32,000 nucleotides of DNA from Trichodesmium erythraeum IMS101. Lineage in GTDB: Bacteria > Cyanobacteriota > Cyanobacteriia > Cyanobacteriales > Microcoleaceae. The translations under genes were made by a program, and so were the position numbers. Each line of letters starts with the position of its first letter. Position 1 is the stretch's first letter. Under the pieces are notes generated by a model. It had not been told where the DNA came from. It did no database searches and saw nothing but the letters and a program-made list of their open reading frames with translations. The DNA lies in contig NC_008312.1 in NCBI RefSeq assembly GCF_000014265.1, positions 3,900,001 to 3,932,000 on the forward strand, given 5' to 3'. Positions 5,490-29,539 of the stretch are shown here, one piece after another.

Positions 5490-7395
5490 ATGAACAAAGC
5501 TAAAACCCTAAAAAGAAATTTAGAAAATCCTAAACCATTTTTAAGCGTAGTATGGGATACAAACGATATACCAGACCTATGTAGTGTCAATCCCAATCTC
5601 AAATGGAAAGACATTAACTGGAAGAAGGTAGAAAAGTATGTATTTAAGTTGCAAAAGTTAATTTACAGAGCATCCAGCCGTGGCGAAATCCGCAAAATGC
5701 ATAAATACCAAAAACTTCTGACCAAAAGTTACTATGCCTTGTTGCTAGCTGTTAGGCGTGTGACTCAGGACAACCAGGGAAAGAAAACTGCTGGTATAGA
5801 TGGCATAAAAAGCCTTCCCCCAATGCAGAGATTTAACTTGGTAGAAATGTTAAGGTCACGACATCTTAAAGCAAGCCCAACCCGTAGAGTCTGGATACCA
5901 AAACCAGGTAGAGAAGAAAAACGCCCATTAGGCATACCCACTATGTACGATAGAGCACTTCAAGCACTGGTAAAGTTAGGCATGGAACCAGAATGGGAGG
6001 CACTTTTTGAGCCTAATAGTTATGGTATTTTCCGGAGGTCAACACATGATGCTATTGCAGCAATCTATGTCAGCATTAACCAAAAAACAAAATATGTTTT
6101 AGATGCTGACATATCCAAATGTTTTGACCGAATTAACCATGATGTACTGATGGGAAAAATTGGAAAATCTCCATACAGACGATTAATCAAACAATGGTTA
6201 AAGTCTGGAGTATTCGACAATAAACAATTCTCAAACACTGTGGAAGGTACACCACAGGGAGGGGTAATATCACCTTTGCTAGCAAACATCGCCCTACACG
6301 GGGAAAGAAAAATGCCTAGAAGATTACGCTGAAACCCTCCCAGGGACAAAACGCGATAATAAAAGAGGATTATCCATAATACGATATGCTGATGACTTTG
6401 TAATCTTACACAAAGACATCAAAGTACTGTTACAAGCAAAAACCGTAATACAGGAATGGTTAAACCAGGTAGGATTAGAACTAAAACCAGAAAAGACCAA
6501 AATTGCCCACACCTTAGAGGAATATGAAGGGAATAAACCTGGATTTGACTTTTTAGGATTTAATGTTAGGCAATATAAGGTTAAGACAACCAAAAAAGGG
6601 TTCAAAACACTGATTAAGCCGTCCTCTAAGAGTATAAAAACTCATTACCGGAAGCTGGCGTATATATGTGACATATACAAAACCGCTCCTACAAAAGTTT
6701 TAATAGCTAAACTTAATCCGGTAATCAGAGGATGGGCCAATTACTTTTCCACCGTAGTCAGTAAAGAGGTATATAGTAAATTAGATTGCCTCCTATGGAA
6801 AAGACTAGGTCAATGGGCAAGTAGACGGCATCCAAACAAGTCAGCCAAATGGGTTAAAAATAAGTATTTTCCTCGCTACAAAGTCACCAGAAACTGGTTA
6901 CTTAACGACGGCGAATATATACTTAACCAACACTCAGATGTTGCCATAGAAAGACACATCAAGGTAAAAGGTAATAAATCCCCATTAGACGGCGATTGGA
7001 CTTATTGGAGCAGTAGAATCGGTAAACACCCAGGTGTTAGGAAAGAAGTTACAACGCTGTTAAAACGGCAAAAGAATAAATGCGCATTTTGTGGGTTAAC
7101 CTTCAGATCAAACGACCTCATGGAAGTTGACCATATAAAACCAAGATCTGAAGACGGTGATAACTCAATTAAAAACAAGCAACTGTTACACCGACATTGC
7201 CATGATACTAAAACTGCTTTAGATAATAAAACATACACAAGACCTAAGTTACAGGACTTACCTGATGAATACCTATGGGTGAATGATATGTTAATTCTAA
7301 AACAGGGATGTACCTATGAAAAAGGACGTCTAAGAGAGGAGCCGGATGAGGTGAAAGTCTCACGTCCGGTTTTGAAGACGAGCCGGGTAAGGTAA
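5490..7395 (+). pseudogene. group II intron-encoded protein (reverse transcriptase / maturase X / HNH endonuclease), interrupted by one frameshift
   Basis: 5490-6332 encodes the RT motifs TAGIDG, RRVWIPKPGREEKRPLGIPTMYDRALQ, LDADISKCFDRINH and GTPQGGVISPLLANIALHG. The continuation is open only in the +1 frame from 6283 to 7395. It reads EKCLEDYAE..IIRYADDFVILH, RGWANYF, and the HNH CAFCG..EVDHIKPRSEDGDNS..NKQLLHRHCHDTKT. The frames switch near the G4/A-runs at about 6297-6315. Confidence 0.85.
7339..7372 (+). ncRNA. group II intron catalytic domain V
   Basis: GAGCCGGATGAGGTGAAAGTCTCACGTCCGGTTT forms a 34-nt hairpin with a GAAA tetraloop, a 2-nt bulge and the AGC triad, matching the domain V consensus. 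Confidence 0.85.
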
Positions 7396-17150: not shown

Positions 17151-17310
17151 TTAGTTGTTAGGTGTTAGTTTGAAAAATTAACAAATTGATAACACCTTAC
17201 TACCAAGTTCATTGATTTTGGCTTTGGTTTTTTATTGATGGCTTTTTATTTTAATCATTTTCTATCTTTGCTATCTACCAAAAAACCTAAAACTACCAAA
17301 TCTACTAATA
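17151..17310. repeat. dispersed ~200-bp repeat, copy A head (split by the IS630 element)
   Basis: It aligns by eye with 28712-28884. Both begin with heptamer repeats, followed by a near-identical core (GTTTGAAAA(A)TTAACAAATTGATAACACCTTACTACCAA) differing only in one A of the A-run, then TTGATTTTGG..TTTTCTATCTTTGCT(A/C)TCTACC..CTACTAAT. Confidence 0.75.
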
Positions 17311-17368
17311 CTAATTTCATAAACTTAAGCTACACTTTTAGAAGTAACCTATTATAGAAAATGTCCCC

Positions 17369-17872
17369 ATGTCAGGAGTAGTAAAAATTGAGATAAATGA
17401 ATCGGTAGAAACTCTCAAAAAACTTTTAAAAAGTGCGAGTACAGCTCAAGAAAAGGAAAGACTTCAAACTATTTACTGGTTGAAAACTCAAACAGTAGAA
17501 ACAGTAAAAGAAATTGCGATAATGTTAGGACGCAATCGAGTCACAGTACAAAAATGGTTAGGGAAATATCGTACAGGTGGACTGAATCTTTTACTAGAAC
17601 CAAAGAAAAATCTAGGAGGGAGGCCAAGTTCAATTCCACCAAATGTAATCGAGAAATTAGAAGCAGAATTGCAAAACCCGGAAGGTTTCCAAAGCTATGG
17701 TGAAATTCAACAGTGGTTAACGACTTGTTTTGACATCGAGCTGTCTTATCGAACAGTTCATCAATTAGTCAGATATAAATTAAAAAGTAAATTAAAAGTT
17801 CCACGTCCAAATCACATAAAACAAAATAAAGAAGCTCAAGAAAACTTTAAAAAAAACTCTCATCTCAACTAG
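17369..17872 (+). CDS. IS630-family transposase, N-terminal HTH part (orfA)
   Basis: 167 codons with helix-turn-helix-like segments (EIAIMLGRNRVTVQKWLGKYR, SYRTVHQLVRYKLK). It ends 14 nt after an A8 run. Confidence 0.8.
   Translation: MSGVVKIEINESVETLKKLLKSASTAQEKERLQTIYWLKTQTVETVKEIAIMLGRNRVTVQKWLGKYRTGGLNLLLEPKKNLGGRPSSIPPNVIEKLEAELQNPEGFQSYGEIQQWLTTCFDIELSYRTVHQLVRYKLKSKLKVPRPNHIKQNKEAQENFKKNSHLN
17849..17856 (+). promoter_or_regulatory. A8 slippery run, candidate programmed -1 ribosomal frameshift site of the IS630 transposase
   Basis: The -1 frame has a TAA at 17848-17850 and opens exactly within the A-run (17851). From there it encodes the DDE domain. Confidence 0.5.
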
Positions 17873-18336
17873 AAGAGAAAATTAAGTTAATTAATAAATA
17901 TTCGGAAAATCAACTGCCAATTCGCTATTGGTGTCAAGACGAGACTAGAATTGGATTAAAAACTATAACAGGTAAAGTCATTACTGCTTGCGGTGTTAAG
18001 CCCATTGGTTTATATCAATGGCTATTTAAATATCTATGGCTTTATGGTTTAGTAGAACCAAAAACAGGAGATTCCTTTTTTTATGAATTTAGTCATCTAG
18101 ATACTCCTTGCTTTGAAAGATTTTTAGAGCTTTTTTCTCAAACATATCCTGAAGAGATTCATATTATTCAACTAGATAACGGGCGAGGGCATCTAGGGAA
18201 TGATTTATCTATCCCTGATCACATCATTTTATTATTTCAACCTCCTTATTGTCCCGAAGTTAATCCCATTGAAAGACTGTGGAAAGAGGTGAAAAAATTC
18301 TTGAAAAATCGAGTTTTCGATTCCTTAGATTTCTGA
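17851..18336 (+). CDS. IS630-family transposase, DDE catalytic part (-1 frame), ended by a premature in-frame TGA
   Basis: The DDE(D)-type motifs WCQDETRIG, IIQLDNGRGH and YCPEVNPIERLWK are present. TGA at 18334-18336 is followed by 34 more sense codons in the same frame (RRILRNILTGFSQKDIASCTGYDFILEALCVVGL) and then a TAG at 18439-18441. Those codons resemble the usual transposase C-terminus. Confidence 0.7.
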   Translation, partial: KKLSSQLEEKIKLINKYSENQLPIRYWCQDETRIGLKTITGKVITACGVKPIGLYQWLFKYLWLYGLVEPKTGDSFFYEFSHLDTPCFERFLELFSQTYPEEIHIIQLDNGRGHLGNDLSIPDHIILLFQPPYCPEVNPIERLWKEVKKFLKNRVFDSLDF

Positions 18337-18449
18337 CGCAGAATCCTGAGAAATATATTAACTGGATTTAGTCAAAAAGATATTGCTTCTTGTACAGGAT
18401 ATGATTTTATTCTTGAAGCATTATGTGTAGTCGGACTTTAGGAAATTGG

Positions 18450-18515
18450 TATAACTATCTTTGCTCTCTACTACTAAACCACTAAATTTACTAAAACTTA
18501 ATATATTTGGGAGTG
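18450..18515. repeat. dispersed repeat, copy A tail (after the IS630 element)
   Basis: TATCTTTGCTCTCTACTACTAAACCAC...GGGAGTG aligns with TATCTTTACTCTCTACCTGAAACCAC...GGGAGTG at 28884-28920. Confidence 0.65.
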
Positions 18516-18664
18516 CTAATGGTCAGTTATTAAGTTAAAATTTTAGAACTCAGCAGTTAGAAAAAAGTTTGCTTGACAATTGAAGCGATCGCTAAGTGAT
18601 AACTGTTGCGCTACGGAATATGAAAAACGCAGTTCCTCGGAAGGAGGTTAACTGATAACTGATT

Positions 18665-19102
18665 TTATGCTTGAGTCCAACCTTGAAAAGCTGCCACTAA
18701 AACATTAGCAATTGGATGATCGAGAGCTTCTTTGAATGCTTCTGTTCCTGCTGATTTTAATACTCCTATTACTCGCTGTTTTAATGTGGGGTGATTTTCA
18801 ACAACTTCAACGGCTTTAGCAACAACTGCCATTTGCCCTGCGGTAGTTTCCGTAGGGTTTGATAGCTCTAATTGTTGAAGAAGCTGTTGAATTTCTGCTG
18901 CGGTTTCAGCTAAAGTTCTTTGTTGAGCTTCATTAATGTTTCCAGCTAGTTTCTCAACCTTGATTTTTCCGTTGTTATAACCTACAGCTATATTAGTGTT
19001 TTGATTTTCAACTTCTCCTTTATTAACACCTATACTAAAAGCACCTTGTTGTTTGATATTGTCACCGTATATACTGGTTTTTTTTGAATTATCGTTTTCC
19101 AT
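18665..19102 (-). CDS. hypothetical protein (145 aa) with a GEVENQNTN module and a helical C-terminal region
   Basis: ORF with coding-like composition. Its N-terminal ~85 residues are paralogous to the C-terminal part of the adjacent 358-aa ORF. The C-terminal part (AETAAEIQQLLQQLE..NPT....HPTLKQRVIGVLKSAGTEAFKEALDHP) resembles regions I recall from many cyanobacterial hypothetical or pentapeptide-repeat proteins. Confidence 0.6.
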   Translation of the reverse strand: MENDNSKKTSIYGDNIKQQGAFSIGVNKGEVENQNTNIAVGYNNGKIKVEKLAGNINEAQQRTLAETAAEIQQLLQQLELSNPTETTAGQMAVVAKAVEVVENHPTLKQRVIGVLKSAGTEAFKEALDHPIANVLVAAFQGWTQA

Positions 19103-19311: not shown

Positions 19312-20388
19312 TCATTTGCTAAATAAGTGGTTACCAAATAGTGGTTTTCCAATTCTGATAATTGGTTCTCTTGGCGCGAAATTGTTTTTCATCATTTCGA
19401 TGTGTTCAGGAAGTGTCAAGTTAGGTATCTTGATTTCTATAGGGTTTAAATTTTCTAATTGTGGAATAAGTTGGTTAATTTTTGGTAATGTTTCACCTCT
19501 AGTTTTTTCTTGAAGTTCGTTAATGCTTCCAAGTGTATCAGCTGTGATTTTTCTGTTATCAAAACCTACATCTACATTAGTGTTTTGATTTTCAACTTCT
19601 CCTACATTAATACCTGTACCAAAACTTCCTTGTTGTTCTATTTTGTCACCGTGTATGTCAGTGTTTCCCTCTATGTAAAAATGTGTGTTACTTGATATAT
19701 GATGATGTATAACGTTTGATTCTCCATTCATCATGGAGAGTCCTAATGACCAAAGAGAAAATTCAACACCAGACCCTATTATGTTTGCAGCAAAAGTCTG
19801 GGTACTATTTGGGGTTCCGTTTTGATACCCATTCTGGTTTCCATTTTGAGATAGATTACTATTTTCCCTATTGTTATCGTCTTCCTCGCTGTCTTCTAAA
19901 CTCGAATTCTTCTGAAGTTGCGGTTCATTCATTAAGGGGTTTTGGAAAGAACTTAAACTATATTGATTGGAATATTCCCAACTATACTCATTATTTCCTT
20001 GTCTACTATTGATAGAGTAAGAGGAAAAGTTCTCTGAATGGTTTTCCACTCCAGAATTTAGGTTTTGTGTTTCGGTTTCTGGTCTATTGCTAGTAGGAAC
20101 GGAGTAGGAAGCCTGATTTTCTGGATAATTAGGAGAGTTGTAGTCATGATCAAATGCTGTTGTTTCATAATTATTCCATTCATTGTCAAAGGAATACGGT
20201 GACTGATTTTCATAAATATTCTCCCTTGTGGGTATATCGTGCTCTAGGCGATGGGGATCTCCTGAGTTCGGGAAAGATAAATGATCATGTTGATATGACA
20301 AGTAGTCACATTCACTTGATATTATATCTGAATATTCATCAGATTCACCAGGCATAGAAGCTGGGTTCTGCGAATTAGGAATGTTCAT
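19312..20388 (-). CDS. hypothetical protein (358 aa) with an N/S/Q/Y/E-rich low-complexity N-terminal region and a C-terminal GEVENQNTN module
   Basis: Long ORF with only shadow ORFs on the opposite strand. The C-terminal IHGDKIEQQGSFGTGINVGEVENQNTNVDVGFDNRKI...INELQEKT...NP.E is paralogous to 18665-19102. Confidence 0.6.
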   Translation of the reverse strand: MNIPNSQNPASMPGESDEYSDIISSECDYLSYQHDHLSFPNSGDPHRLEHDIPTRENIYENQSPYSFDNEWNNYETTAFDHDYNSPNYPENQASYSVPTSNRPETETQNLNSGVENHSENFSSYSINSRQGNNEYSWEYSNQYSLSSFQNPLMNEPQLQKNSSLEDSEEDDNNRENSNLSQNGNQNGYQNGTPNSTQTFAANIIGSGVEFSLWSLGLSMMNGESNVIHHHISSNTHFYIEGNTDIHGDKIEQQGSFGTGINVGEVENQNTNVDVGFDNRKITADTLGSINELQEKTRGETLPKINQLIPQLENLNPIEIKIPNLTLPEHIEMMKNNFAPREPIIRIGKPLFGNHLFSK

Positions 20389-20670: not shown

Positions 20671-21306
20671 ATGAATCTTTTACTAGGATGTTTAGCTTAT
20701 CCTGTTGGCATTGCTGTAAGTAACGTCATAGGAAAATGTATTGACTACAAACTTGCACAGCCCCAAGCTCATGGTTTTCGAGAACAGGAACTAGAAGCAC
20801 AGCATCAGTTTCGTTTAAAAGAACTAAAACAACAATACGAGCAGAGTATAACTAAGTCTTTTGTAGATTCTGAGATTAGGATAAATGAACAAAAAATCAT
20901 TGAATATTTAAAGTCAAGTTATTCTATTTCAACAAAAAAAGCTTTGATAAATTTAGCGAGAGAAGATGCAAATAGTCCCTTTTTTGATGGGGTAGAGACG
21001 ACTTACAAATTTGTAAAGGGTTTGCATGAAAAGACTGGTTTACCAATCATTTTGGTGTCTCCTTTTTGGGATGATACTAGACCTAAAGATAAAAATGACC
21101 CAGGTGGCTATGTTGATTTTCGCACGGCTTTTAATAGTTCTTATAGTTGGCATAATTTAGCTTCTAAGCAAGATGGTTATTTTAAGAGGCCTTTATATCA
21201 AACAGATCGGGATATAAATTACGTTTATAGTGTGCTTTATGATGTTCCTATTATTTTAGTTCATGGAACAATTCAAGGGGTTCATTCACCTCAACAATTT
21301 GTGTAA
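20671..21306 (+). CDS. N-terminal TM/coiled-coil module, probably the 5' part of the following dynamin-like GTPase gene and separated from it only by one in-frame TAA
   Basis: It starts with a hydrophobic helix (LLLGCLAYPVGIAVSNVIG), followed by a coiled-coil-like segment (QELEAQHQFRLKELKQQYEQ) and then an alpha/beta-looking region. It is in the same frame (position mod 3 = 1) as 21439-22926, with no other stop in 21307-21438. Confidence 0.6.
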   Translation: MNLLLGCLAYPVGIAVSNVIGKCIDYKLAQPQAHGFREQELEAQHQFRLKELKQQYEQSITKSFVDSEIRINEQKIIEYLKSSYSISTKKALINLAREDANSPFFDGVETTYKFVKGLHEKTGLPIILVSPFWDDTRPKDKNDPGGYVDFRTAFNSSYSWHNLASKQDGYFKRPLYQTDRDINYVYSVLYDVPIILVHGTIQGVHSPQQFV

Positions 21307-21438
21307 AGAATTCACCCTCATATTACTTTTTGGAATTTATTACCGGATCAACAGGATAGTTATACAAGTCTAGATTTAAGGTTTTTCCCTTTTCAACTTC
21401 CCCTGGGAAATATTCAGAATCCTCATGCTTATCGGGAG

Positions 21439-22926
21439 ATGGGTGAATATAGTCTAAATTTGCAAGATACTGTCAGTAAGTATTTGGCTAAAGCTATTGG
21501 TTTGTTAAGTTCTTTTTATCATTTATATCGTTTTGAAACTCGTCCTAATCTACAACAATTTGAGTTAGAAAATGAACAGGAATTAGAGATTTTATTACTT
21601 CAGGTAAATAAGATTTATGATTTTCTATCCCAAAAGAATCCTAACAAAGTCAATTATTATAAACTTGAAAAATCTGTAATCTTTTTAGAGCTTGATATTG
21701 AGGAAATAAAACCTAAGAAAGAATTAGATACCAAACCAAACTCTAAGGTTAATTTGGAAGTAACTGAAATTTCTTGTTGGTTTGCTGAACGACTAGATAA
21801 AATAGCTAGAACAATTATTGAATTTGAACAGCAAGGTGATGTAATTAATTGTCAAGCTGTTGTCACTCTATTAGAAGAATCAATCGAAAAACTACTAAAT
21901 ATAGGTAATCAATTGAGAGTCTTGATGATTGGAGATCTTAATCGTGGTAAAAGTACGATTCTTAATGCTTTGCTTGGAGAAAGTTTGCTACCTATGGGAG
22001 TAACTGCTACTACTGCAATTCCTACTTTTGTTAAATATGGTGAACAGGAAAAAGTAGTAGTTTATAAGAAAAATGGTGAACAAGAATCATTAAGTTTGGA
22101 GGAATATAAAAAGAAATATACGCTCAATTCAAAAGAAGTCAAATCTCTAATAAAGAAGCTGTATAATAATGTAAAAAGAAAATGGCTTGAACCTCTAGAT
22201 TATGCTGAACTTTATTGTCCAATTGAAGTTTTATCAAGAGGGGTAGAATTTATTGATACAGGAGGATTTAATCTTACAGAAGCACAGAATCAAAAGACTT
22301 TTGATTACATTAAGGAGTGTGATGTTATTTTCTTTATTTTAAGTGCAGACCAACAACTTACTCAACAAGAGAGTAATTATATTAAAAGGCTATTAAGTAT
22401 GCAAAACGATATTAATCAAATAAAAATAAACCAAAATTTTACTCCAAAAATCACAAAACCTATATTTTATTTAATCAATAAATTGGAAAAGGTTGAAGAA
22501 GATGAAAAAAAAGAAGTCCATGACATTTTTGTTGATAAATTCTGTGAATGTTTAGATATAAGTGAAGATGAAGCAGAAAAAATGTGGGGAGATACAATAT
22601 TTGATGTGTATGCTAAAACAGCTTTAAAAAATTTAGAGCAAGGAGAATCTCTTGATGGTACTGGAATTATAGAATTTCAAAAACGGCTTGATAATTTTTT
22701 AAGTAATGAAAAATTAAAAACTAAATTACTACAAGCTGCTCAAATAGCAGAAATCGTTAAAGGTAAAATTGCTTCAAAAGTTAGTAATAGATTAGCTTTG
22801 TATAAATATACTGAGGTTGACCATGAGGTAAAAATTAAACATTTACAAGCCTTACAAGATAATATTTCTGCTCAAGTGGAAATAATTAAGGCTAAATATA
22901 ATCAAATAAGTAGCTGTGCAGAATAG
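21439..22926 (+). CDS. bacterial dynamin-like protein (large GTPase) 1; lacks the stalk/paddle insertion
   Basis: G1 GDLNRGKST, G2-region MGVTATTAIPT, G3 FIDTGG, G4-like LINKLE. It is paralogous along its length to the next ORF. The annotated ATG has GGGAG directly abutting it, so spacing is poor for an SD. Confidence 0.8.
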   Translation: MGEYSLNLQDTVSKYLAKAIGLLSSFYHLYRFETRPNLQQFELENEQELEILLLQVNKIYDFLSQKNPNKVNYYKLEKSVIFLELDIEEIKPKKELDTKPNSKVNLEVTEISCWFAERLDKIARTIIEFEQQGDVINCQAVVTLLEESIEKLLNIGNQLRVLMIGDLNRGKSTILNALLGESLLPMGVTATTAIPTFVKYGEQEKVVVYKKNGEQESLSLEEYKKKYTLNSKEVKSLIKKLYNNVKRKWLEPLDYAELYCPIEVLSRGVEFIDTGGFNLTEAQNQKTFDYIKECDVIFFILSADQQLTQQESNYIKRLLSMQNDINQIKINQNFTPKITKPIFYLINKLEKVEEDEKKEVHDIFVDKFCECLDISEDEAEKMWGDTIFDVYAKTALKNLEQGESLDGTGIIEFQKRLDNFLSNEKLKTKLLQAAQIAEIVKGKIASKVSNRLALYKYTEVDHEVKIKHLQALQDNISAQVEIIKAKYNQISSCAE

Positions 22927-23070
22927 ATCACATATACTTTAAAGCCAAAAAGCATATCTTCCCTGTAGTTTGGGAATAAATAATGGTAATTAATTTTGCC
23001 TAGGCACTTAGTAATATGACTTTCTAAACATGAAAGTCATACAAGTTAAATAACAATGAGGTAAACGACC

Positions 23071-25230
23071 ATGCAAAATCAAAATACTGGATTCAATTTA
23101 GAAGTAACAAAAATCCGCCATGGCTTTGCTGATAAACTTCAAGAAACGGAGAAAATAATTGGTGATTTTGAAAATCAAGCAATAGTTCAAGGAGCATCGG
23201 GACAGTTAGAATTATCTGCTGTTAGAAAGTCTTTACGTAATGAAATTGGCAAGCTAAAAAATGGTAAATTTCGCTTTTTAATCATTGGAGATTTTAATCG
23301 TGGTAAAAGTACTATTCTTAATGCATTTTTTGAAAAAAGTTTGCTACCTATGGGAGTAACTGCTACTACTGCAATTCCTACTTTTGTTAAATATGGTGAA
23401 CAGGAAAAAGTAGTAGTTCATAAGAAAAATGGTGAACAAGAATCATTAAGTTTGGAGGAATATAAAAAGAAATATACGCTCAATTCAAAAGGAGTCAAAT
23501 CTCTAATAAAGAATGTGTATAATAATGTAAAAGGAAAATGGCTTGAACCTCTAGATTATGCTGAACTTTATTGTCCAATTGAAGTTTTGTCAAGAGGAAT
23601 AGAGTTTATTGATACAGCAGGATTAAATCATACAGAAGAGGAAAATCAAAAAACATTTTCGTATATTGAGAAATGTGATGCAATTCTTTTTGTTTTAGCC
23701 GCAGATGAACAATTTACTCAGAAAGAAGAAGGTTACCTAAAAACGTTTTTGGGGTACAAGAAAGAGATTGAAGATATTGAAAACCAGCCACAATTAACAC
23801 AAAGTCAAAGCTCAGATCCAGAAAGCAGAAACACAAAGGAAGTCAGACCAATTTTTTACTTGATTAATAAATGGGAAAAAATTGAAGAAGATGAAAAAAA
23901 AGAAGTCCATGAAATTTTTGTTGATAAATTCTGTGAATGTTTAGATATAACTGAAGATGAAGCAGAAAAAACGTGGGGAGATACAATATTTGATGTGTAT
24001 GCTAAAACAGCTTTAGAAAATTTAGAGCAAGGAAAATCTCTTGATGGTACTGGAATTATAGAATTTAAAAAAAGACTTAGTGATTTTCTAACTAATGAGA
24101 GATTAATGACAGAATTAAAACAAGCTGTTAATAAAGCAGGAATTGCCAGCAGACAGGTAGTGTCGAAAGTTGAGGAAAGATTGTTTACACTTGAAGATGA
24201 TGTAAAAACATTGGAAGAAAAAATTGAGAAAACTAAGCCTTGTGTTAATCTTATTAACAAAATTGTTCAAAATGTAAAGGAGAAAATAAAAGACAAAAGA
24301 TATCTCTGTATTGCAAAAGTGGAAGGAGAATATAAAAGCTATTTTAATCAATTAGTTCTCAATTTTGAAAGAGATTTTGAAATGCCTGTAGTATCGGGTA
24401 TGGAAAATAATCAACGTGAAAAATATACCCAATCTTTAGAGAATAAATTAACAAAATATCGACAAAAAAAGCTGAAAAATTGGCATAAAATAAGTACGGG
24501 TATCGTGTATGAGATTATTAATGACTTAAACAATTCATTTAACAAAGAAATTAATGACTACAATAAACAAAGAGATGCTATCAGGGAAATTCTTAATAAA
24601 AAAAAGTTTAAAGTTAAAGACCAGACAAGTTTATCCATGGATCAAAGTAGTTCATCAGAAAAATCATCATTAACTCCGGCTGAGGCAAATGTAACAGGAA
24701 GAATGTTATTGGGAGGGACTGGTGGGACAGTAGGTACTGCAGCAGTAGGAGCTGGAGGAGTATCATTAGCCCATGTTTTCGGATCACATATAGCTTTAAC
24801 ACATATTGTTGGTTCTGCTGTGGCTTTAACTCCTTTAGGATGGGTTTTAATTGGTAGTAGTGCTGTTGTGGGAGGAATAGTAGCATGGTGGCAAAGAGAC
24901 GAAGAAGTTAAACAATTTCAGAAAAATATGCAGAACAGGGTCAAAGAAGCATTTAAAAAATTGCTTGAAGAAGATAAAGTCGAGGCTCTTAAACAGCAAG
25001 CCAGAGAGGTATTTAACCCTTATGAGGAGTCAGCTAAACAAATGAAAGACGATATTGAGTCTCTAGAAATATCCCTTGATAATTTGTTGGAAAAGAAAAG
25101 AACAACTTCAGTTAACATTGAAGAGGAGAAAGAACGTTTACAAACTTTCGTAGATAATATTAATGATAAATTGAAAACAATAGAAGCAAAATACAATGAG
25201 ATAGCTTTAGCCCAATCTAAAGACAGTTAA
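23071..25230 (+). CDS. bacterial dynamin-like protein 2 with a helical stalk and a Gly/Ala-rich hydrophobic membrane hairpin
   Basis: G1 GDFNRGKST, G3 FIDTAG, G4-like LINKWE. There is a long K/E-rich helical region and a ~65-residue hydrophobic segment (GRMLLGGTGGTVGTAAVGAGGVSLAHVFGSHIALTHIVGSAVALTPLGWVLIGSSAVVGGIVAWW, nt 24697-24892). GAGG lies 8 nt upstream of the ATG. Confidence 0.85.
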   Translation: MQNQNTGFNLEVTKIRHGFADKLQETEKIIGDFENQAIVQGASGQLELSAVRKSLRNEIGKLKNGKFRFLIIGDFNRGKSTILNAFFEKSLLPMGVTATTAIPTFVKYGEQEKVVVHKKNGEQESLSLEEYKKKYTLNSKGVKSLIKNVYNNVKGKWLEPLDYAELYCPIEVLSRGIEFIDTAGLNHTEEENQKTFSYIEKCDAILFVLAADEQFTQKEEGYLKTFLGYKKEIEDIENQPQLTQSQSSDPESRNTKEVRPIFYLINKWEKIEEDEKKEVHEIFVDKFCECLDITEDEAEKTWGDTIFDVYAKTALENLEQGKSLDGTGIIEFKKRLSDFLTNERLMTELKQAVNKAGIASRQVVSKVEERLFTLEDDVKTLEEKIEKTKPCVNLINKIVQNVKEKIKDKRYLCIAKVEGEYKSYFNQLVLNFERDFEMPVVSGMENNQREKYTQSLENKLTKYRQKKLKNWHKISTGIVYEIINDLNNSFNKEINDYNKQRDAIREILNKKKFKVKDQTSLSMDQSSSSEKSSLTPAEANVTGRMLLGGTGGTVGTAAVGAGGVSLAHVFGSHIALTHIVGSAVALTPLGWVLIGSSAVVGGIVAWWQRDEEVKQFQKNMQNRVKEAFKKLLEEDKVEALKQQAREVFNPYEESAKQMKDDIESLEISLDNLLEKKRTTSVNIEEEKERLQTFVDNINDKLKTIEAKYNEIALAQSKDS

Positions 25231-25342
25231 ACATTGTATGGTTAATTTTTTTTCTCAGGGTAGTTTACTAAGTTTTCTATTCTTTAGTAAGCTACGCTTT
25301 CTCGTAATTAACTGATGAAACTTGCAAATTATTTTGTTCAAA

Positions 25343-26998
25343 ATGAAATCTTCTATCACAATTTCAAAGTCTCTTCAAGCTGCCTGTCAATTTATTGATG
25401 CCCAAGAAAATCAGCAACTTATTAAAGATGTGGAATTAGCCTGCCAACAATTGGTTAATCCTAATTTTGGAATAGCGGTAGTTGCTCCTTTTAATTTTGG
25501 CAAATCTACTCTAATTAATGCTCTATTAGGTAAAGAAATTATGCCAACAAAAATGATCAGAACTACTGGAACATTAATTAGTGTCAAGTATGGAAAAACT
25601 TTAACAATTGTTATTACTTTCACTTCAGGTAAAGTAATAAGAAGTAACGATGGAAAAGTTCTCAAAAAGTTTACTGTTTTGAATCGTCAAGGTAAACCTA
25701 GAGAGGATGTAGTTTCTGTAGAAGTTTTTTATCCTCATAAATTGCTCAAAAATGGAGTAGAACTTTTTGATTTACCCGGAACAAATGATAGGGAAGAACA
25801 GGATATTTTGATTCGTAATCAGTTATTGCGGGTAGATTTAGTTATTCAAATACTAAATGCTAGACAACCTTTTACCCAGGGAGAAAAGGAAACACTTAAT
25901 AAATGGTTATTGAATAGAGGTATTAAAACAATTATTTTTGTTCTTAACCGGATGAATGAATTAGAAAGCAAAAATGATCAAGATGAAGTTTATAATGATG
26001 TTTATTCAACTATTAATACTTTTGAATCAGATTTACCTAAAGGGGTTAAAAAACTCTACCGTGTTGATGCACTTCCTGCTCTTAAGGCACAACAAGAAAG
26101 AAACATTTTGAAAATGATTACAAGTGGTATCATAAGTTTTGAATCAACTTTATTGACTATAATTTCTCTTCAAAAGGAAAGAATTAATCAGACTAGATTA
26201 TTTCGGGTAATTAGTATAGCTTCTCAGGTTAAGTCTGTTTTACAAAAAGAAGCGAATAATTTGCTCAAAGAAATTAGAGATGCTGAATATGTCAGAAATG
26301 TTGCTATTGAAAAAGGAAGGCAGCGAGAAGAATATCTCAGAGAAGAGTTTAAAAGAAGAGTAAGAGTTTATGGTAATTGGCTATCTTTAGATATGCTTTT
26401 AGGAAGTTATCAAGAAAAAGTAGCACTGGCTTTAGAAACAGGATCTTTTAATAACTGGCAAGATAGTCAATTTAAGTCAACTATTCTTAATTATACTGAA
26501 TCAATTGAAAAGTGGGCTAATCAATCTTGTGATGAGTTTCAGAAAGGTAGACCAAATAGGATTAAGATATCATTTCCCAGTTATCCTCATGTCTCTTTAC
26601 CTCAGCTTCAAGAGACTGATTTTGGTCAGTGGTTTGGTGATGTTTTTAATGGTGGAGAAAACCAAAGAAGATTGGATAAAGAATATGAAAGAAAAAAATG
26701 GCTTGCTTATAAAAGTGCTGCTTATAACTATTTACATAAATTTCGTACAGCTACTCTAGCTTTTCTCAATGAATATGAAAAAACTGTTGAATTATTAATA
26801 GTTTTTACTGTTCCACCAGAGTCATTTACGGTTATTCAAAAACGTTCTTGTTTAAAGGTTTTAAATAATTTACTAAATGCTATTTACAGTATAGAATCAT
26901 TGAAAATAACAACTAATATTCAGAGATTAAATTTGGGTAAAGATTTTATTTTTTTTATCCTTTTTTGTAAAAATTGTTTTTTGATGTTAATTGTTTAG
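25343..26998 (+). CDS. bacterial dynamin-like protein 3 (divergent paralogue, no membrane hairpin)
   Basis: G1 APFNFGKSTLINALLG, G3 LFDLPGTND, G4-like VLNRMNE, followed by a helical C-terminal half. I prefer the ATG at 25343 (MKSSITIS...) to the TTG at 25322 used in the ORF track. Confidence 0.8.
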   Translation: MKSSITISKSLQAACQFIDAQENQQLIKDVELACQQLVNPNFGIAVVAPFNFGKSTLINALLGKEIMPTKMIRTTGTLISVKYGKTLTIVITFTSGKVIRSNDGKVLKKFTVLNRQGKPREDVVSVEVFYPHKLLKNGVELFDLPGTNDREEQDILIRNQLLRVDLVIQILNARQPFTQGEKETLNKWLLNRGIKTIIFVLNRMNELESKNDQDEVYNDVYSTINTFESDLPKGVKKLYRVDALPALKAQQERNILKMITSGIISFESTLLTIISLQKERINQTRLFRVISIASQVKSVLQKEANNLLKEIRDAEYVRNVAIEKGRQREEYLREEFKRRVRVYGNWLSLDMLLGSYQEKVALALETGSFNNWQDSQFKSTILNYTESIEKWANQSCDEFQKGRPNRIKISFPSYPHVSLPQLQETDFGQWFGDVFNGGENQRRLDKEYERKKWLAYKSAAYNYLHKFRTATLAFLNEYEKTVELLIVFTVPPESFTVIQKRSCLKVLNNLLNAIYSIESLKITTNIQRLNLGKDFIFFILFCKNCFLMLIV

Positions 26999-27250
26999 GT
27001 GAATTTTTGACAGATGCTTTAGCACCTCTCAATGAATATGAAAAAAAATGTTGAATCATTAATATTTTTTATCGTTCTACTAGAGTTATTCACTGTTATC
27101 CCCCAAGGTTATTATTTAAGGTTTTGAAATAATTCACTAAATGCTATTCAAAGTATAGAATCCTTGAAAATAATAACTAATACTTATAGGTTAAATTGGT
27201 GAGAAAGTTTAATTTTTTTCTCTTTTTTTGTGAAAAGTATTTATTTATTG
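26756..27250 (+). repeat. tandem duplication (~263-bp period) of the 3' end of the third dynamin-like gene; the second copy is degenerate
   Basis: 26756-26985 (CTCAATGAATATGAAAAAACTGTTGAATTATTAATA...ACTAAATGCTATTTACAGTATAGAATCATTGAAAATAACAACTAATA...) recurs at 27019-27250 with many substitutions, indels and stop codons. Confidence 0.75.
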
Positions 27251-27721
27251 TAATAAAATAAATATTAATTATACTATAAATCTGTGATAATTTCAAGGAT
27301 AGATATCAGTATTCAATAGAGAATGATGGGAAAGGTTAGGACAGTCTTTCGGTAATACTTTTTTACGGAAGTCAGAAGTGAAATTGAATATTATGTCTTA
27401 TGTCGAGCTCAATACTTACCTTAATATTTATAGTTTGGTAGATGTTTGCAGAGGGCAGAAGATACTTATTCTGAAGGGTTTTTTCTAATTGTAACTAAGT
27501 TTTACAGGACTTCGGCAGAACCACCATATCTAGTAGAGGCGTTTAAGGTTAGGGCTCTAAACGGCTGTTCGCCCCTATAGATGGTGTATAGTTTGATATT
27601 TTACTTAAGCCCTCTTTTATACATAGACTATGCTGCTGGGCATGATGCAACATACTAAAAATTTCTGCAGTCAATATAGTTTCAGGTAATTATTTGAGAA
27701 ATGGTGTGCTAAAATAGGAGC

Positions 27722-28495
27722 CTACTGCCTATTCTCCATTCCCTTAACAAATGGCAGAACATCAGCCACAGACCAAGGTAAAGGAGGGCGATCGCTATAA
27801 CCAATAAAATGCTCATACCCCAACTGTTCGTACAACTCATTTACTAGTGTCTGTAAGTCTACTATTGGTTGAGTATCTCCAGCCAATAGAGGTAGTGAAA
27901 ATTGAGGAATGGGATCGCTCAAATTAAAAGGATACAACTCGGCAATAGGGCGAATGTTATAGGGACTGATCAAAATTCGATAGTGACTTTTAGTGCTAGT
28001 TAAGGAAGGTAAAAGTTCTCCCTCTCGCAAAAGGTCAATTTCCACCAGATGAGTCCTACTCTCTAAAAATTGTTTCCGTCTAGTTTCATATTTATTACGA
28101 CCTTCTCCTTTTTTGTTTACGAAAGAAATAACTTCAATAATTGTAACTACTTCGTTTGTGGTAGTATCCTTAACTTCAATATGATCCTGCTCAAGTTCTT
28201 CTCCCATAGGAATAGTTACTATAATAGGCTGACTGAAAGGTTGTGGTGTGGAGGCTTTTGTTGTTAGTGGGAGTGAATTATCTTGATTTTTTTGCACATT
28301 AACATCTGTTTGACTAATAACGATCTGTTTTGAGTTACCCATTTGATATACCCATTTATCAGTCACTAACTGATATTTAGGTAATAACTGGGGAGTTAAC
28401 ATTCTAGCGATCGCTGCCACCAGTTGATTATGAAATTCAGGCCAAAGTTCAGGTTGTTCGAGGTATGGGTTCATTCCGGGAAATGGGTTAGGCAT
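27722..28495 (-). CDS. DUF4058-family protein (cyanobacterial; restriction-endonuclease-like motif pattern)
   Basis: The MPNPFPGMNPYLEQPELWPEFHN start, IEVISFVNKKGEGR..Y..RRKQFLESRTHLVEIDLLREG and the ~257-aa length match my recollection of DUF4058 proteins. Confidence 0.7.
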   Translation of the reverse strand: MPNPFPGMNPYLEQPELWPEFHNQLVAAIARMLTPQLLPKYQLVTDKWVYQMGNSKQIVISQTDVNVQKNQDNSLPLTTKASTPQPFSQPIIVTIPMGEELEQDHIEVKDTTTNEVVTIIEVISFVNKKGEGRNKYETRRKQFLESRTHLVEIDLLREGELLPSLTSTKSHYRILISPYNIRPIAELYPFNLSDPIPQFSLPLLAGDTQPIVDLQTLVNELYEQLGYEHFIGYSDRPPLPWSVADVLPFVKGMENRQ

Positions 28496-28711: not shown

Positions 28712-28920
28712 AGGTATAAGGTGTGAGGTGTCAGGTGCTAGGTTTGAAAATTAACAAATTGATAACACCTTACTACCAAATATATTGATTTTGGGTCTGG
28801 TTTTTCCCGTTGAAGTTTTTACTTGAATTATTTTCTATCTTTGCTCTCTACCACTCAACCTCAAACGACCAAACCTACTAATTATCTTTACTCTCTACCT
28901 GAAACCACGAAAAGGGAGTG
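28712..28920. repeat. dispersed ~200-bp repeat, copy B (intact)
   Basis: Five AGGTNNN heptamers (28712-28746) are followed by sequence collinear with 17151-17310 plus 18450-18515. Confidence 0.75.
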
Positions 28921-29539
28921 AATTGTATCCAAGGCATCCAGGTCAATGTCAGCGGTTGTTAAGTTCCCTCCTGGGCTATTAGTAGATTTAAAGGTGACTG
29001 AATATTCTTGAGAAACTTGAATGACTCGCTCTTCATTACTACCACGACTACTACCACAGTCGACGATATCTGTGTTGCGTCTCTCCGCAGGCGTTTATTT
29101 TACAGCATAAGTTCTGGGAGAAGTCACAGAGGAACCTATTTAATCTATGTTTCCCACGACAAAATGTAGCATAGAAAGATAGGTCAACCCTTCCCTTGTT
29201 ATCTCCCTGAAACGGCGGGCAAGTTAACCCAACTAGAAGAAAATTATAGTGGTCAATTATTCTCAATAATTTAGTAAATATTTATGCTTAATATTTCTCT
29301 GATATTTTGACTTCTCATTAAGGTCAAGTAAATAAGGATAATTTTTATAATATAAATACTTAAGCAAGCCACAGATTTTATACTAATTTTGATATGACAT
29401 ATTGAAGTGCAGAATGTGAAATTTAAGGTGTCACAAATAGTTTTAAACTTTAGATGGGAAATAATTTCCTGAAATGACTGAGGGGGTCAAAATTTAGATT
29501 CTTTAAAATCTAACTTTTGACTGCTGCTTAGGGATGGTT

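Follow-up and report, generated by a model that had tools for sequence, protein, structure and literature searches.

Bacterial dynamin-like proteins (BDLPs) have been studied well as structures, but their cellular roles are mostly unknown. What three such proteins do when their genes stand in a row is the question raised by a locus of Trichodesmium erythraeum IMS101. The stretch analysed here, hereafter the window, comprises 32,000 nucleotides (nt) and contains, at positions 20671-26998 (Tery_2544 to Tery_2547), three consecutive genes for dynamin-family GTPases, named g1, g2 and g3, all on the plus strand. An initial annotation had presented this trio as a candidate membrane-remodelling or defence module, related to the Eleos/LeoABC anti-phage dynamins but distinct in architecture. 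This work indicates, from sequence comparison, that g2 and g3 are an already known type of cyanobacterial tandem pair, to which g1 is a lineage-restricted addition. The N-terminal domain (NTD) of g1 and the origin of g1 as a partial duplicate of g2 are new. With moderate confidence, we read the locus as an accessory BDLP module for heterotypic membrane remodelling with g1 as its membrane-anchored adaptor, and not as Eleos.

Three dynamin-family GTPases on one strand

The three open reading frames (ORFs) lie where they had been placed (Table 1), with spacers of 144 and 112 nt. The G1, G3 and G4 motif strings quoted for them were all found again in the translations: GDLNRGKST/DTGG/NKLE in g1, GDFNRGKST/DTAG/NKWE in g2 and FNFGKST/DLPG/NRMN in g3. 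The hidden Markov model check that had been proposed was run, and the Pfam Dynamin_N model scores far over its gathering score of 27 in each protein (91.1 bits for g1, 82.7 for g2 and 87.8 for g3), which identifies all three as dynamin-like GTPases. Each of them combines a G domain above the cut-off with the G1 (GxxxxGKS/T), G3 (DxxG) and G4 motifs of the dynamin superfamily.

Two statements about the surroundings fared less well. A host from the Nostocales had been assumed, and T. erythraeum IMS101 belongs to the order Oscillatoriales. The cluster had also been described as an AT-rich block: its GC content (30.8%) is indeed lower than that of ffh (43.8%) and phoH (38.4%), with 34.8% for the whole window, but the difference is modest. 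Since other non-core stretches of the window are as AT-rich as the cluster, the compositional signal is weak. A scan for promoters and terminators gave counts that were not above those of shuffled controls and is uninformative on operon structure.

g2 and g3 as a tandem BDLP pair

g2 matches the Pfam model Dynamin-like_hel_bact over its entire length (190.7 bits) and aligns over amino acids (aa) 40-711 with the BDLP of Nostoc punctiforme (PDB 2J68, E 6.6e-64). Hydropathy profiles place a Gly/Ala-rich hydrophobic paddle hairpin at aa ~569-607 of g2 and none in g1 or g3, in agreement with the earlier remark that such a hairpin is limited to the middle protein. The same type of profile reveals a hydrophobic C-terminal helix in g3 (aa 531-551) that the initial annotation had missed. 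g3 also carries a conserved aromatic tip loop (FGQWFGDVFNGG).

No match was obtained between g3 and the Pfam helical domain. A profile of the g3 family nevertheless finds 2J68 in the PDB (E 6e-33), together with DLP1/2 (dynamin-like proteins, DLPs) of Campylobacter jejuni and mitofusins. The structural model of g3 has a mean predicted local distance difference test score (pLDDT) of 88.6 and consists of a G domain and a helical stalk (neck/trunk); BDLP, IniA, mitofusin and Cj-DLP are its top matches in Foldseek. A helical neck/trunk with a membrane-binding paddle or tip is found in full in g2, in truncated form in g1 and, by the model, in g3. The third protein is a divergent paralogue, as had been noted, and belongs to a family of partner DLPs.

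A scan for g3-like genes that covered one genome per cyanobacterial species yielded 417 g3-like stretches, and 80 loci were fetched. In most of these 80 loci, one or two BDLP-like genes lie directly upstream of the g3-like gene and on the same strand. Clusters of two BDLP-like genes and one g3-like gene are common in filamentous cyanobacteria (Phormidium, Floridaenema, Oscillatoria, Microseira), so three DLP genes in tandem are no architectural novelty. g2 and g3 show the arrangement of the tandem pair: a BDLP1-like gene comes first, and a dissimilar DLP gene of the g3 family stands right behind it in the same orientation. As far as sequence can tell, they are the already known cyanobacterial pair of the type of N. 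punctiforme BDLP1 and its neighbour. The pair corresponds to the cyanobacterial 'Tandem A/B' BDLP clades, which Jilly et al. 2018 (PMC5827413) described together with a DnaJ-bearing 'chaperone' clade, and to BDLP1 and the neighbour with a DnaJ-like domain that Liu et al. 2018 (PMC6104087) considered. The DnaJ domain PF00226 is indeed present in the g3 family of Nostocaceae.

Broken frame and probable ancestry of g1

g1 consists of the ORFs 20671-21306 (211 aa) and 21439-22926 (495 aa), which share one frame with a single TAA between them. The 751-aa protein that had been 'reconstructed' from them therefore holds as a single frame, but the in-frame nonsense codon of IMS101 had been passed over in silence. 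This codon replaces Q212 within the NTD (Table 1). Q212 is nearly invariant (at least 90% of the sequences in a 15-sequence NTD alignment) and stands in the motif 'VQRIHP', which makes the mutation a change of CAA to TAA. The identical TAA stop is present in the independent metagenome-assembled genome (MAG) GBRTRLIN201, whereas contigs from wild Trichodesmium metagenomes (L086, L087, L089, L091, L092) encode an intact 751-aa g1 with Q212 (P0186-P0188) and read FVQRIHPH around this position. The stop is therefore genuine, an allele that segregates in natural populations. For the annotation, this means that Tery_2544 and Tery_2545 are to be merged and flagged as one disrupted gene.

Behind its G domain, g1 is truncated after a short neck and has neither trunk nor paddle: Dynamin-like_hel_bact matches only over model positions 9-78 of 373 (30.6 bits). 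The G domain itself is shared with g2 down to the DNA level. Positions 21911-22210 are 94% identical to 23267-23566, and positions 22458-22754 are 89% identical to 23847-24143. The G domains of g1 and g2 from the same locus are 73-80% identical (Trichodesmium, Okeania, L005, L098), and g1 orthologues of different genera are 58-69% identical, which does not exceed the same-locus values. One tract of g1 differs between alleles, reading KRKWLEPLDY in IMS101 and LIEAWLDTLDY in the wild; g2 reads KGKWLEPLDY, so the IMS101 version matches g2. The shared DNA tracts, the identity of same-locus G domains and the g2-like tract specific to IMS101 together indicate gene conversion.

Elsewhere, proteins of 1034-1037 aa exist in which the NTD is followed by a full BDLP with paddle (including P0197 and P0198). 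P0197 (1034 aa) is 46% identical to g1 and 43% identical to g2 over the full lengths of both. These alignments most simply suggest that an ancestral 'NTD + full BDLP' gene was partly duplicated in tandem. After this duplication, g1 would have kept the NTD, G domain and neck and lost the trunk and paddle, while g2 would have kept the G domain, neck, trunk and paddle and lost the NTD. Gene conversion would then hold the two G domains alike. If so, g1 (NTD, G domain and neck) and g2 (G domain, stalk and paddle) are a naturally split system whose undivided form survives elsewhere, and they lend themselves to the question of how partners share out G-domain dimerisation and membrane binding.

The N-terminal domain of g1

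The extra N-terminal module of ~360 residues, which had been pointed out for the first protein, is present in g1 and begins with a hydrophobic segment (aa 1-22). It has no match in Pfam, NCBIfam or PADLOC. A word-indexed search found 16 homologues. A profile search, in which g1-type proteins score down to E 1e-185, returned only 93 clusters among 1.84 billion representative proteins. The residues that are invariant in the NTD family are all present in g1: P125, P131-F132, R151, D168-G169, R173-P174-L175, T178, H198-G199 and Q202.

The structure of the NTD was modelled with AlphaFold on the Symploca homologue P0002, which is 64-66% identical to g1 (pLDDT 74). The model predicts, in order, a poorly modelled hydrophobic N-terminus, a helix of ~70 residues, an alpha/beta domain and a helical bundle. 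The alpha/beta domain bears the invariant motifs PFWDD, DGYxKRPL, TDRD and ILVHGxIQG. Two routes to a fold were tried and rejected. The sequence-profile search of the PDB gave coiled-coil noise only (ATP synthase subunit b, E ~0.1). Foldseek against the PDB gave LptE/PqiC/PelC-like structures at E ~1e-3, with a target-normalised TM-score of ~0.4 and a root-mean-square deviation of 7-9 Å; these matches are marginal and none was assigned. Foldseek against viral structures returned nothing at E ≤ 1e-3.

The NTD is seen fused to a truncated DLP, a full BDLP, another DLP, small MMR_HSR1-type GTPases and TPR repeats. It also occurs as a stand-alone gene, with an Hsp70-like gene directly behind it in L100 (8001-11199) and L101 (8001-10055, where the two overlap by 4 nt) and a pair of large GTPase-like genes directly behind it in L102 (1306-6868). 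In these three loci the NTD recurs as the partner of mechanochemical NTPases. It is, in short, an unannotated domain that recurs fused to or beside Hsp70-like ATPases and GTPases.

Distribution and natural decay

Relatives of g3 with at least 60% identity were found only in Okeania (78-79%), Symploca, Tolypothrix brevis, Microcystis, Anabaena PCC 7108 and Scytonema PCC 7110. Okeania KiyG1 and Okeania SIO3B5 each have a cassette of this close type (78-79%) and, separately, a g3-like gene of the common type (37-38%; L069, L048). A partial Trichodesmium protein (P0118, 38% identity) is also of the common type. The cassette is therefore an extra copy and not part of the core.

In wild Trichodesmium contigs, three states occur at the same chromosomal site: the intact trio, a deletion (L093), and this deletion with further loss (L090, L095). 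The deletion in L093 spans ~1.37 kilobases between the G-domain repeats of g1 and g2, which are its substrate, and leaves a hybrid of NTD and BDLP, itself broken by additional lesions. L090 (strain 21-75) and L095 carry the L093-type deletion and also lack window positions 24491-25155. In all three contigs the g1/g2 recombinant is further disrupted by frameshifts and deletions. Beyond Trichodesmium, g1 of Anabaena PCC 7108 is interrupted by an insertion sequence (IS), with its 5' end upstream of the IS, and g1 is frameshifted in L005 and in Okeania KiyG1 (L007). In L098 it is intact (770 aa). The module is dispensable, and it is polymorphic and eroding in natural Trichodesmium populations. The earlier view of an accessory locus rather than a universal syntenic core is borne out by this decay, by the patchy subfamily and by the mobile-element genes that lie beside some relatives. 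In Trichodesmium, a marine nitrogen fixer of ecological importance, intact, nonsense and recombined alleles are found together, and their occurrence in metagenomes could be correlated with phage pressure or stress.

In L090, L093 and L095 the G-domain repeats of g1 and g2 have recombined unequally and so restored a fused layout, 'NTD + full BDLP', that is intact elsewhere (P0197, P0198).

Several relatives show features of their own. In Scytonema PCC 7110 and in one metagenome contig, a close-type DLP pair adjoins the same conserved cluster (L097 11768-21656, L099 12137-21662). This cluster encodes a radical-SAM protein, two Hsp70-like proteins and several unannotated proteins, with CHAT-TPR or WD40 giants nearby. 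The g2 homologue of both loci has 110-160 extra N-terminal residues, and a profile search of their Hsp70 clusters found no NTD-like ORF. The g2 homologue of Microcystis aeruginosa is an ORF of 1275 aa (L011 6081-9905), with an N-terminal extension of ~590 aa that has no Pfam match and is unlike the NTD. Okeania sp. KiyG1 has a fourth, divergent dynamin-family gene (L007 248-2857, minus strand; 870 aa, Dynamin_N 36.7 bits), located upstream of the hypothetical genes and on the opposite strand. In MAGs that bear the labels Flavobacteriaceae, Leptospiraceae and Tatlockia, short contigs also contain cyanobacterial-type DLP genes (L010, L012, L042). The G domains of L010 and Microcystis are 96% identical, and these three cases are probably binning contamination and not gene transfer.

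Proposed function and alternatives

In an accessory membrane-remodelling module, g2 would act as a BDLP1-type protein that inserts its hydrophobic paddle into the membrane. Together with g3 it would most likely assemble into a heterotypic complex, driven by GTP, for the tethering, fusion or repair of membrane, as suggested by analogy with C. jejuni DLP1/DLP2 and DynA. g1 would be a membrane-anchored minimal GTPase adaptor, its G domain dimerising with that of g2 and its NTD supplying localisation, sensing or assembly. Because g1 is cut by the nonsense codon in IMS101, only g2 and g3, possibly with fragments of g1, would be able to act in this strain.

Five points weigh against this proposal. 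The heterotypic interactions of g2 with g3 and of g1 with g2 are ones that we infer by analogy with other DLP pairs. Membrane anchoring of g1 is uncertain, since the hydrophobic segment is short and contains Gly, Ser, Asn and Pro, and residues 1-20 of the NTD model have a pLDDT below 50. The g1 frameshifts in L005 and L007 could be assembly errors. The repeated loss of g1 could point to toxicity or to selection under certain conditions only, as with defence systems, and g1 need not be an adaptor. Lastly, no paper came up in a full-text literature search with the locus tags Tery_2544 to Tery_2547.

An anti-phage or conflict module is a possible reading, though in our judgement an unlikely one. 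The cassette would then be a functional analogue of Eleos or DynA and not a family-level homologue: its DLPs would seal or remodel the membrane during infection, or abort the infection, and the NTD of g1 would be a sensor or effector. The neighbourhood speaks partly for this. Cassettes that contain g1 lie next to mobile or defence-like genes in L005 (relaxase, ParA, type ISP restriction enzyme), in L098 (ParA, Mrr_cat, integrases) and in Anabaena PCC 7108 (ParA/ParB/SSB, IS elements, CHAT-nSTAND-WD40, a large helicase). These three relatives with restriction, integrase or plasmid genes stand against four others beside housekeeping genes, which is too few for an enrichment test. In Trichodesmium, Okeania, Tolypothrix and Microcystis the cassette has ordinary chromosomal genes around it, and PADLOC recognises no defence system beside the cluster within the window. 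The radical-SAM and two-Hsp70 cluster with CHAT-TPR or WD40 proteins, which the DLP pair adjoins in L097 and L099, would also suit a conflict system. The shuffling of the NTD among DLPs, small GTPases, TPR proteins and Hsp70-like pairs is typical of such systems, but Foldseek against the PDB and viral structures revealed no recognisable nuclease, NADase or pore-forming fold in it. The patchiness of the cassette and the repeated, independent inactivation of g1 would fit as well; against this, Trichodesmium genomes gather pseudogenes generally, so decay is not specific to defence. There is a precedent in DLP operons and DynA, which protect against phage (bioRxiv 10.1101/2022.05.11.491447), but the matches to the LeoA and LeoBC profiles are weak.

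A joint reading goes further and seems to us improbable. It takes the NTD as a new, rare and presumably almost entirely cyanobacterial family of membrane-associated sensors or effectors, and the cassette as a three-dynamin conflict or anti-phage system distinct from Eleos. If this were true, the NTD would be plugged into dynamin-like GTPases by fusion, into Hsp70-like ATPases and large GTPases as an adjacent gene, and into small GTPases and TPR scaffolds by fusion. The cassette would comprise the divergent hypothetical gene with g1, g2 and g3, and g1 would be a costly trigger gene that is recurrently knocked out in nature.

We give little credence to the view that the locus is a decaying, horizontally acquired relic without current function in IMS101, in which the ORFs of g2 and g3 are merely not yet damaged. 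The nonsense codon in g1, the degenerate 3' duplicate of g3 directly downstream of that gene, the IS630 insertion nearby and the deletions and frameshifts across g1, g2 and g3 in several wild lineages would all be expected of a relic. However, neither g2 (719 aa) nor g3 (551 aa) is shortened, and each retains all its G motifs. They share 63-79% protein identity with full-length orthologues of other genera, which implies long-term purifying selection, and some wild populations of Trichodesmium still carry the intact trio.

A housekeeping role, in which the cluster would maintain the thylakoid or cytoplasmic membrane and be needed for normal growth, might be expected from the very wide spread of tandem BDLP clusters in cyanobacteria and from their proposed part in thylakoid dynamics (PMC5827413), but it is highly improbable for a patchy extra copy that coexists with a separate common-type g3-like gene in Okeania and with P0118 in Trichodesmium, is broken or deleted in several natural Trichodesmium lineages and sits on plasmid-like contigs in other taxa (L005, L098).

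Flanking features

Upstream of g1, on the opposite strand, lie the hypothetical genes hyp358 and hyp145 (Table 1). Their common C-terminal helical region carries the motif ...LAETAAEIQQLLQQLE...NPxLKQRVIGALK... Homologues are located directly upstream of g1, again on the opposite strand, in Okeania (L007) and in the two metagenome contigs L005 and L098; in L005 and L098 the counterparts of the two genes are a single protein of 665 or 729 aa. Searches of Pfam and PADLOC with hyp145, hyp358 and the longer homologues gave no significant match. The conserved position suggests that hyp358/hyp145 are a fourth component of the module.

The degenerate duplicate downstream of g3 has stops in all three forward frames and gives a tblastn fragment match of 53%. 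The direct repeats that had been reported around the cluster are real: they are ~225 nt long, 83-86% identical, present in two copies in the window, and bracket hyp145, hyp358, g1-g3 and the DUF4058 gene. They could be the trace of a former mobile element. The IS630 element and the DUF4058 gene that had been noted nearby are both present as well. The IS630 element is absent from every wild Trichodesmium contig examined, and in L086, L090 and L093-L096 position 17308 directly adjoins position 18452. It is not the source of the flanking repeat but a later insertion into the left copy, which is contiguous in the wild contigs that lack the IS. L095 has a different IS (DDE_Tnp_1_2/DUF4096) at almost the same site. 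No DUF4058 homologue was found by tblastn near the cassette in loci outside Trichodesmium, which places this gene outside the conserved module. Far upstream in the window, an ORF of 280 aa (5490-6332) strongly matches reverse transcriptases (PADLOC RT, 120.7 bits, and models of homing-endonuclease-associated reverse transcriptases); it is probably a group II intron or a fragment of a retroelement reverse transcriptase.

Table 1. Features of the g1-g3 locus, in window positions
Feature	Positions	Strand	Description
Flanking direct repeat, left copy	17153..17308 + 18452-18520		split by IS630
IS630-family element	17309..18451	+	HTH_32, HTH_23 and HTH_33 transposase N-terminal domains
hyp145	18665..19102	-	paralogue of the C-terminal helical region of hyp358 (internal repeat and alignment)
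hyp358	19312..20388	-	divergent N/Q/S-rich hypothetical; conserved neighbour of g1-containing cassettes
g1 (Tery_2544 + Tery_2545)	20671..22926	+	one 751-codon frame with one in-frame stop; NTD, dynamin G domain, short neck
NTD of g1	20671..21750	+	predicted hydrophobic N-terminus, long helix, alpha/beta domain, helical bundle
Premature TAA stop, Q212*, within the g1 NTD	21304..21306	+	from translation and homologue alignment
g1 copy of the G-domain repeat common to g2	21911..22754	+	tracts 21911-22210 and 22458-22754
g2 (Tery_2546)	23071..25230	+	719 aa, full-length BDLP: G domain, neck, trunk, paddle
g2 copy of the G-domain repeat common to g1	23267..24143	+	tracts 23267-23566 and 23847-24143
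g3 (Tery_2547)	25343..26998	+	551 aa, shorter DLP; other possible start TTG at 25322
Degenerate tandem duplicate of the g3 3' end	26988..27251	+	last ~260 nt of g3, 76% identity, non-coding
DUF4058 gene	27722..28495	-	Pfam DUF4058 264.6 bits; no PADLOC match
Flanking direct repeat, right copy	28726..28950		

Comparison with known dynamin-like systems

By definition, Eleos (formerly 'Dynamins') is an operon of two genes homologous to Leo, with enrichment in defence islands and P-loop-dependent protection; in the original report it co-localised with known defence systems in ~60% of cases (bioRxiv 10.1101/2022.05.11.491447). The locus in the window shares with it, and with LeoABC of enterotoxigenic Escherichia coli (PDB 4AUR), consecutive dynamin-like genes in an accessory setting. 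In LeoABC one of the genes is split, which makes three. The kinship with Eleos/LeoABC that had been proposed does not extend beyond the superfamily. In the suggested PADLOC check, LeoA scores 34.3 bits in g1 and 38.0 bits in g3, both over partial stretches, LeoBC scores 20.3 bits in g3 only, and g2 has no match. The NCBIfam model LeoA/HP0731 (NF041922) reaches 19.7 bits against a cut-off of 325, and 4AUR is matched by the g3 profile only at E 1e-4. These scores are weak, far below the curated cut-offs and below family level, and membership of Eleos was rejected.

Equivalence to DynA or CrfC was rejected for the same reason; the NCBIfam model DynmDynABac (NF052648) scores 33.6 bits against a cut-off of 1600, in g3 only. 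DynA of Bacillus subtilis is a fused, two-headed DLP with roles in membrane repair and phage tolerance. Because a pair of DLP units cooperates in it at the membrane, it is a plausible functional analogue, but it is a single fused polypeptide, whereas the genes in the window are separate. Minimal GTPase constructs of mitofusin and SynDLP, made up of the G domain and the first helical bundle, dimerise through the G domain. With its G domain and short neck bundle, g1 may be compared by analogy with these constructs (PDB 5GOM, 9EM9); they are engineered, whereas g1 is a natural product with an NTD of 360 aa.

The accessory membrane-remodelling module that we prefer resembles DLP1/DLP2 of C. jejuni (PDB 5OWV/5OXF; PMC6104087), which are encoded side by side in an operon and are matched by both fold and profile. 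There, too, a partner of BDLP1-like fold is combined with a shorter DLP, whose tip loop binds lipid. Cj-DLP1 has an extra N-terminal globular 'assembly domain' that mediates oligomerisation (PMC6104087), a precedent for a role of the NTD, although the two domains have no detectable sequence similarity. The C. jejuni system also differs in having two genes instead of three, and g1 is without trunk and paddle.

N. punctiforme BDLP1 (PDB 2J68/2J69/2W6D) is matched by g2 along its whole length, including the helical domain and the hydrophobic paddle. Its neighbour corresponds to the g3 family, which follows BDLP-like genes directly downstream in most of the loci fetched and carries DnaJ in its Nostocaceae members. 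From the common cyanobacterial clusters the window stands apart, with identities of only 26-30% for g2 and 36-40% for g3, as a separate, patchy subfamily. To the cyanobacterial tandem pair it adds an upstream g1 with an undescribed NTD and a divergent hypothetical gene.

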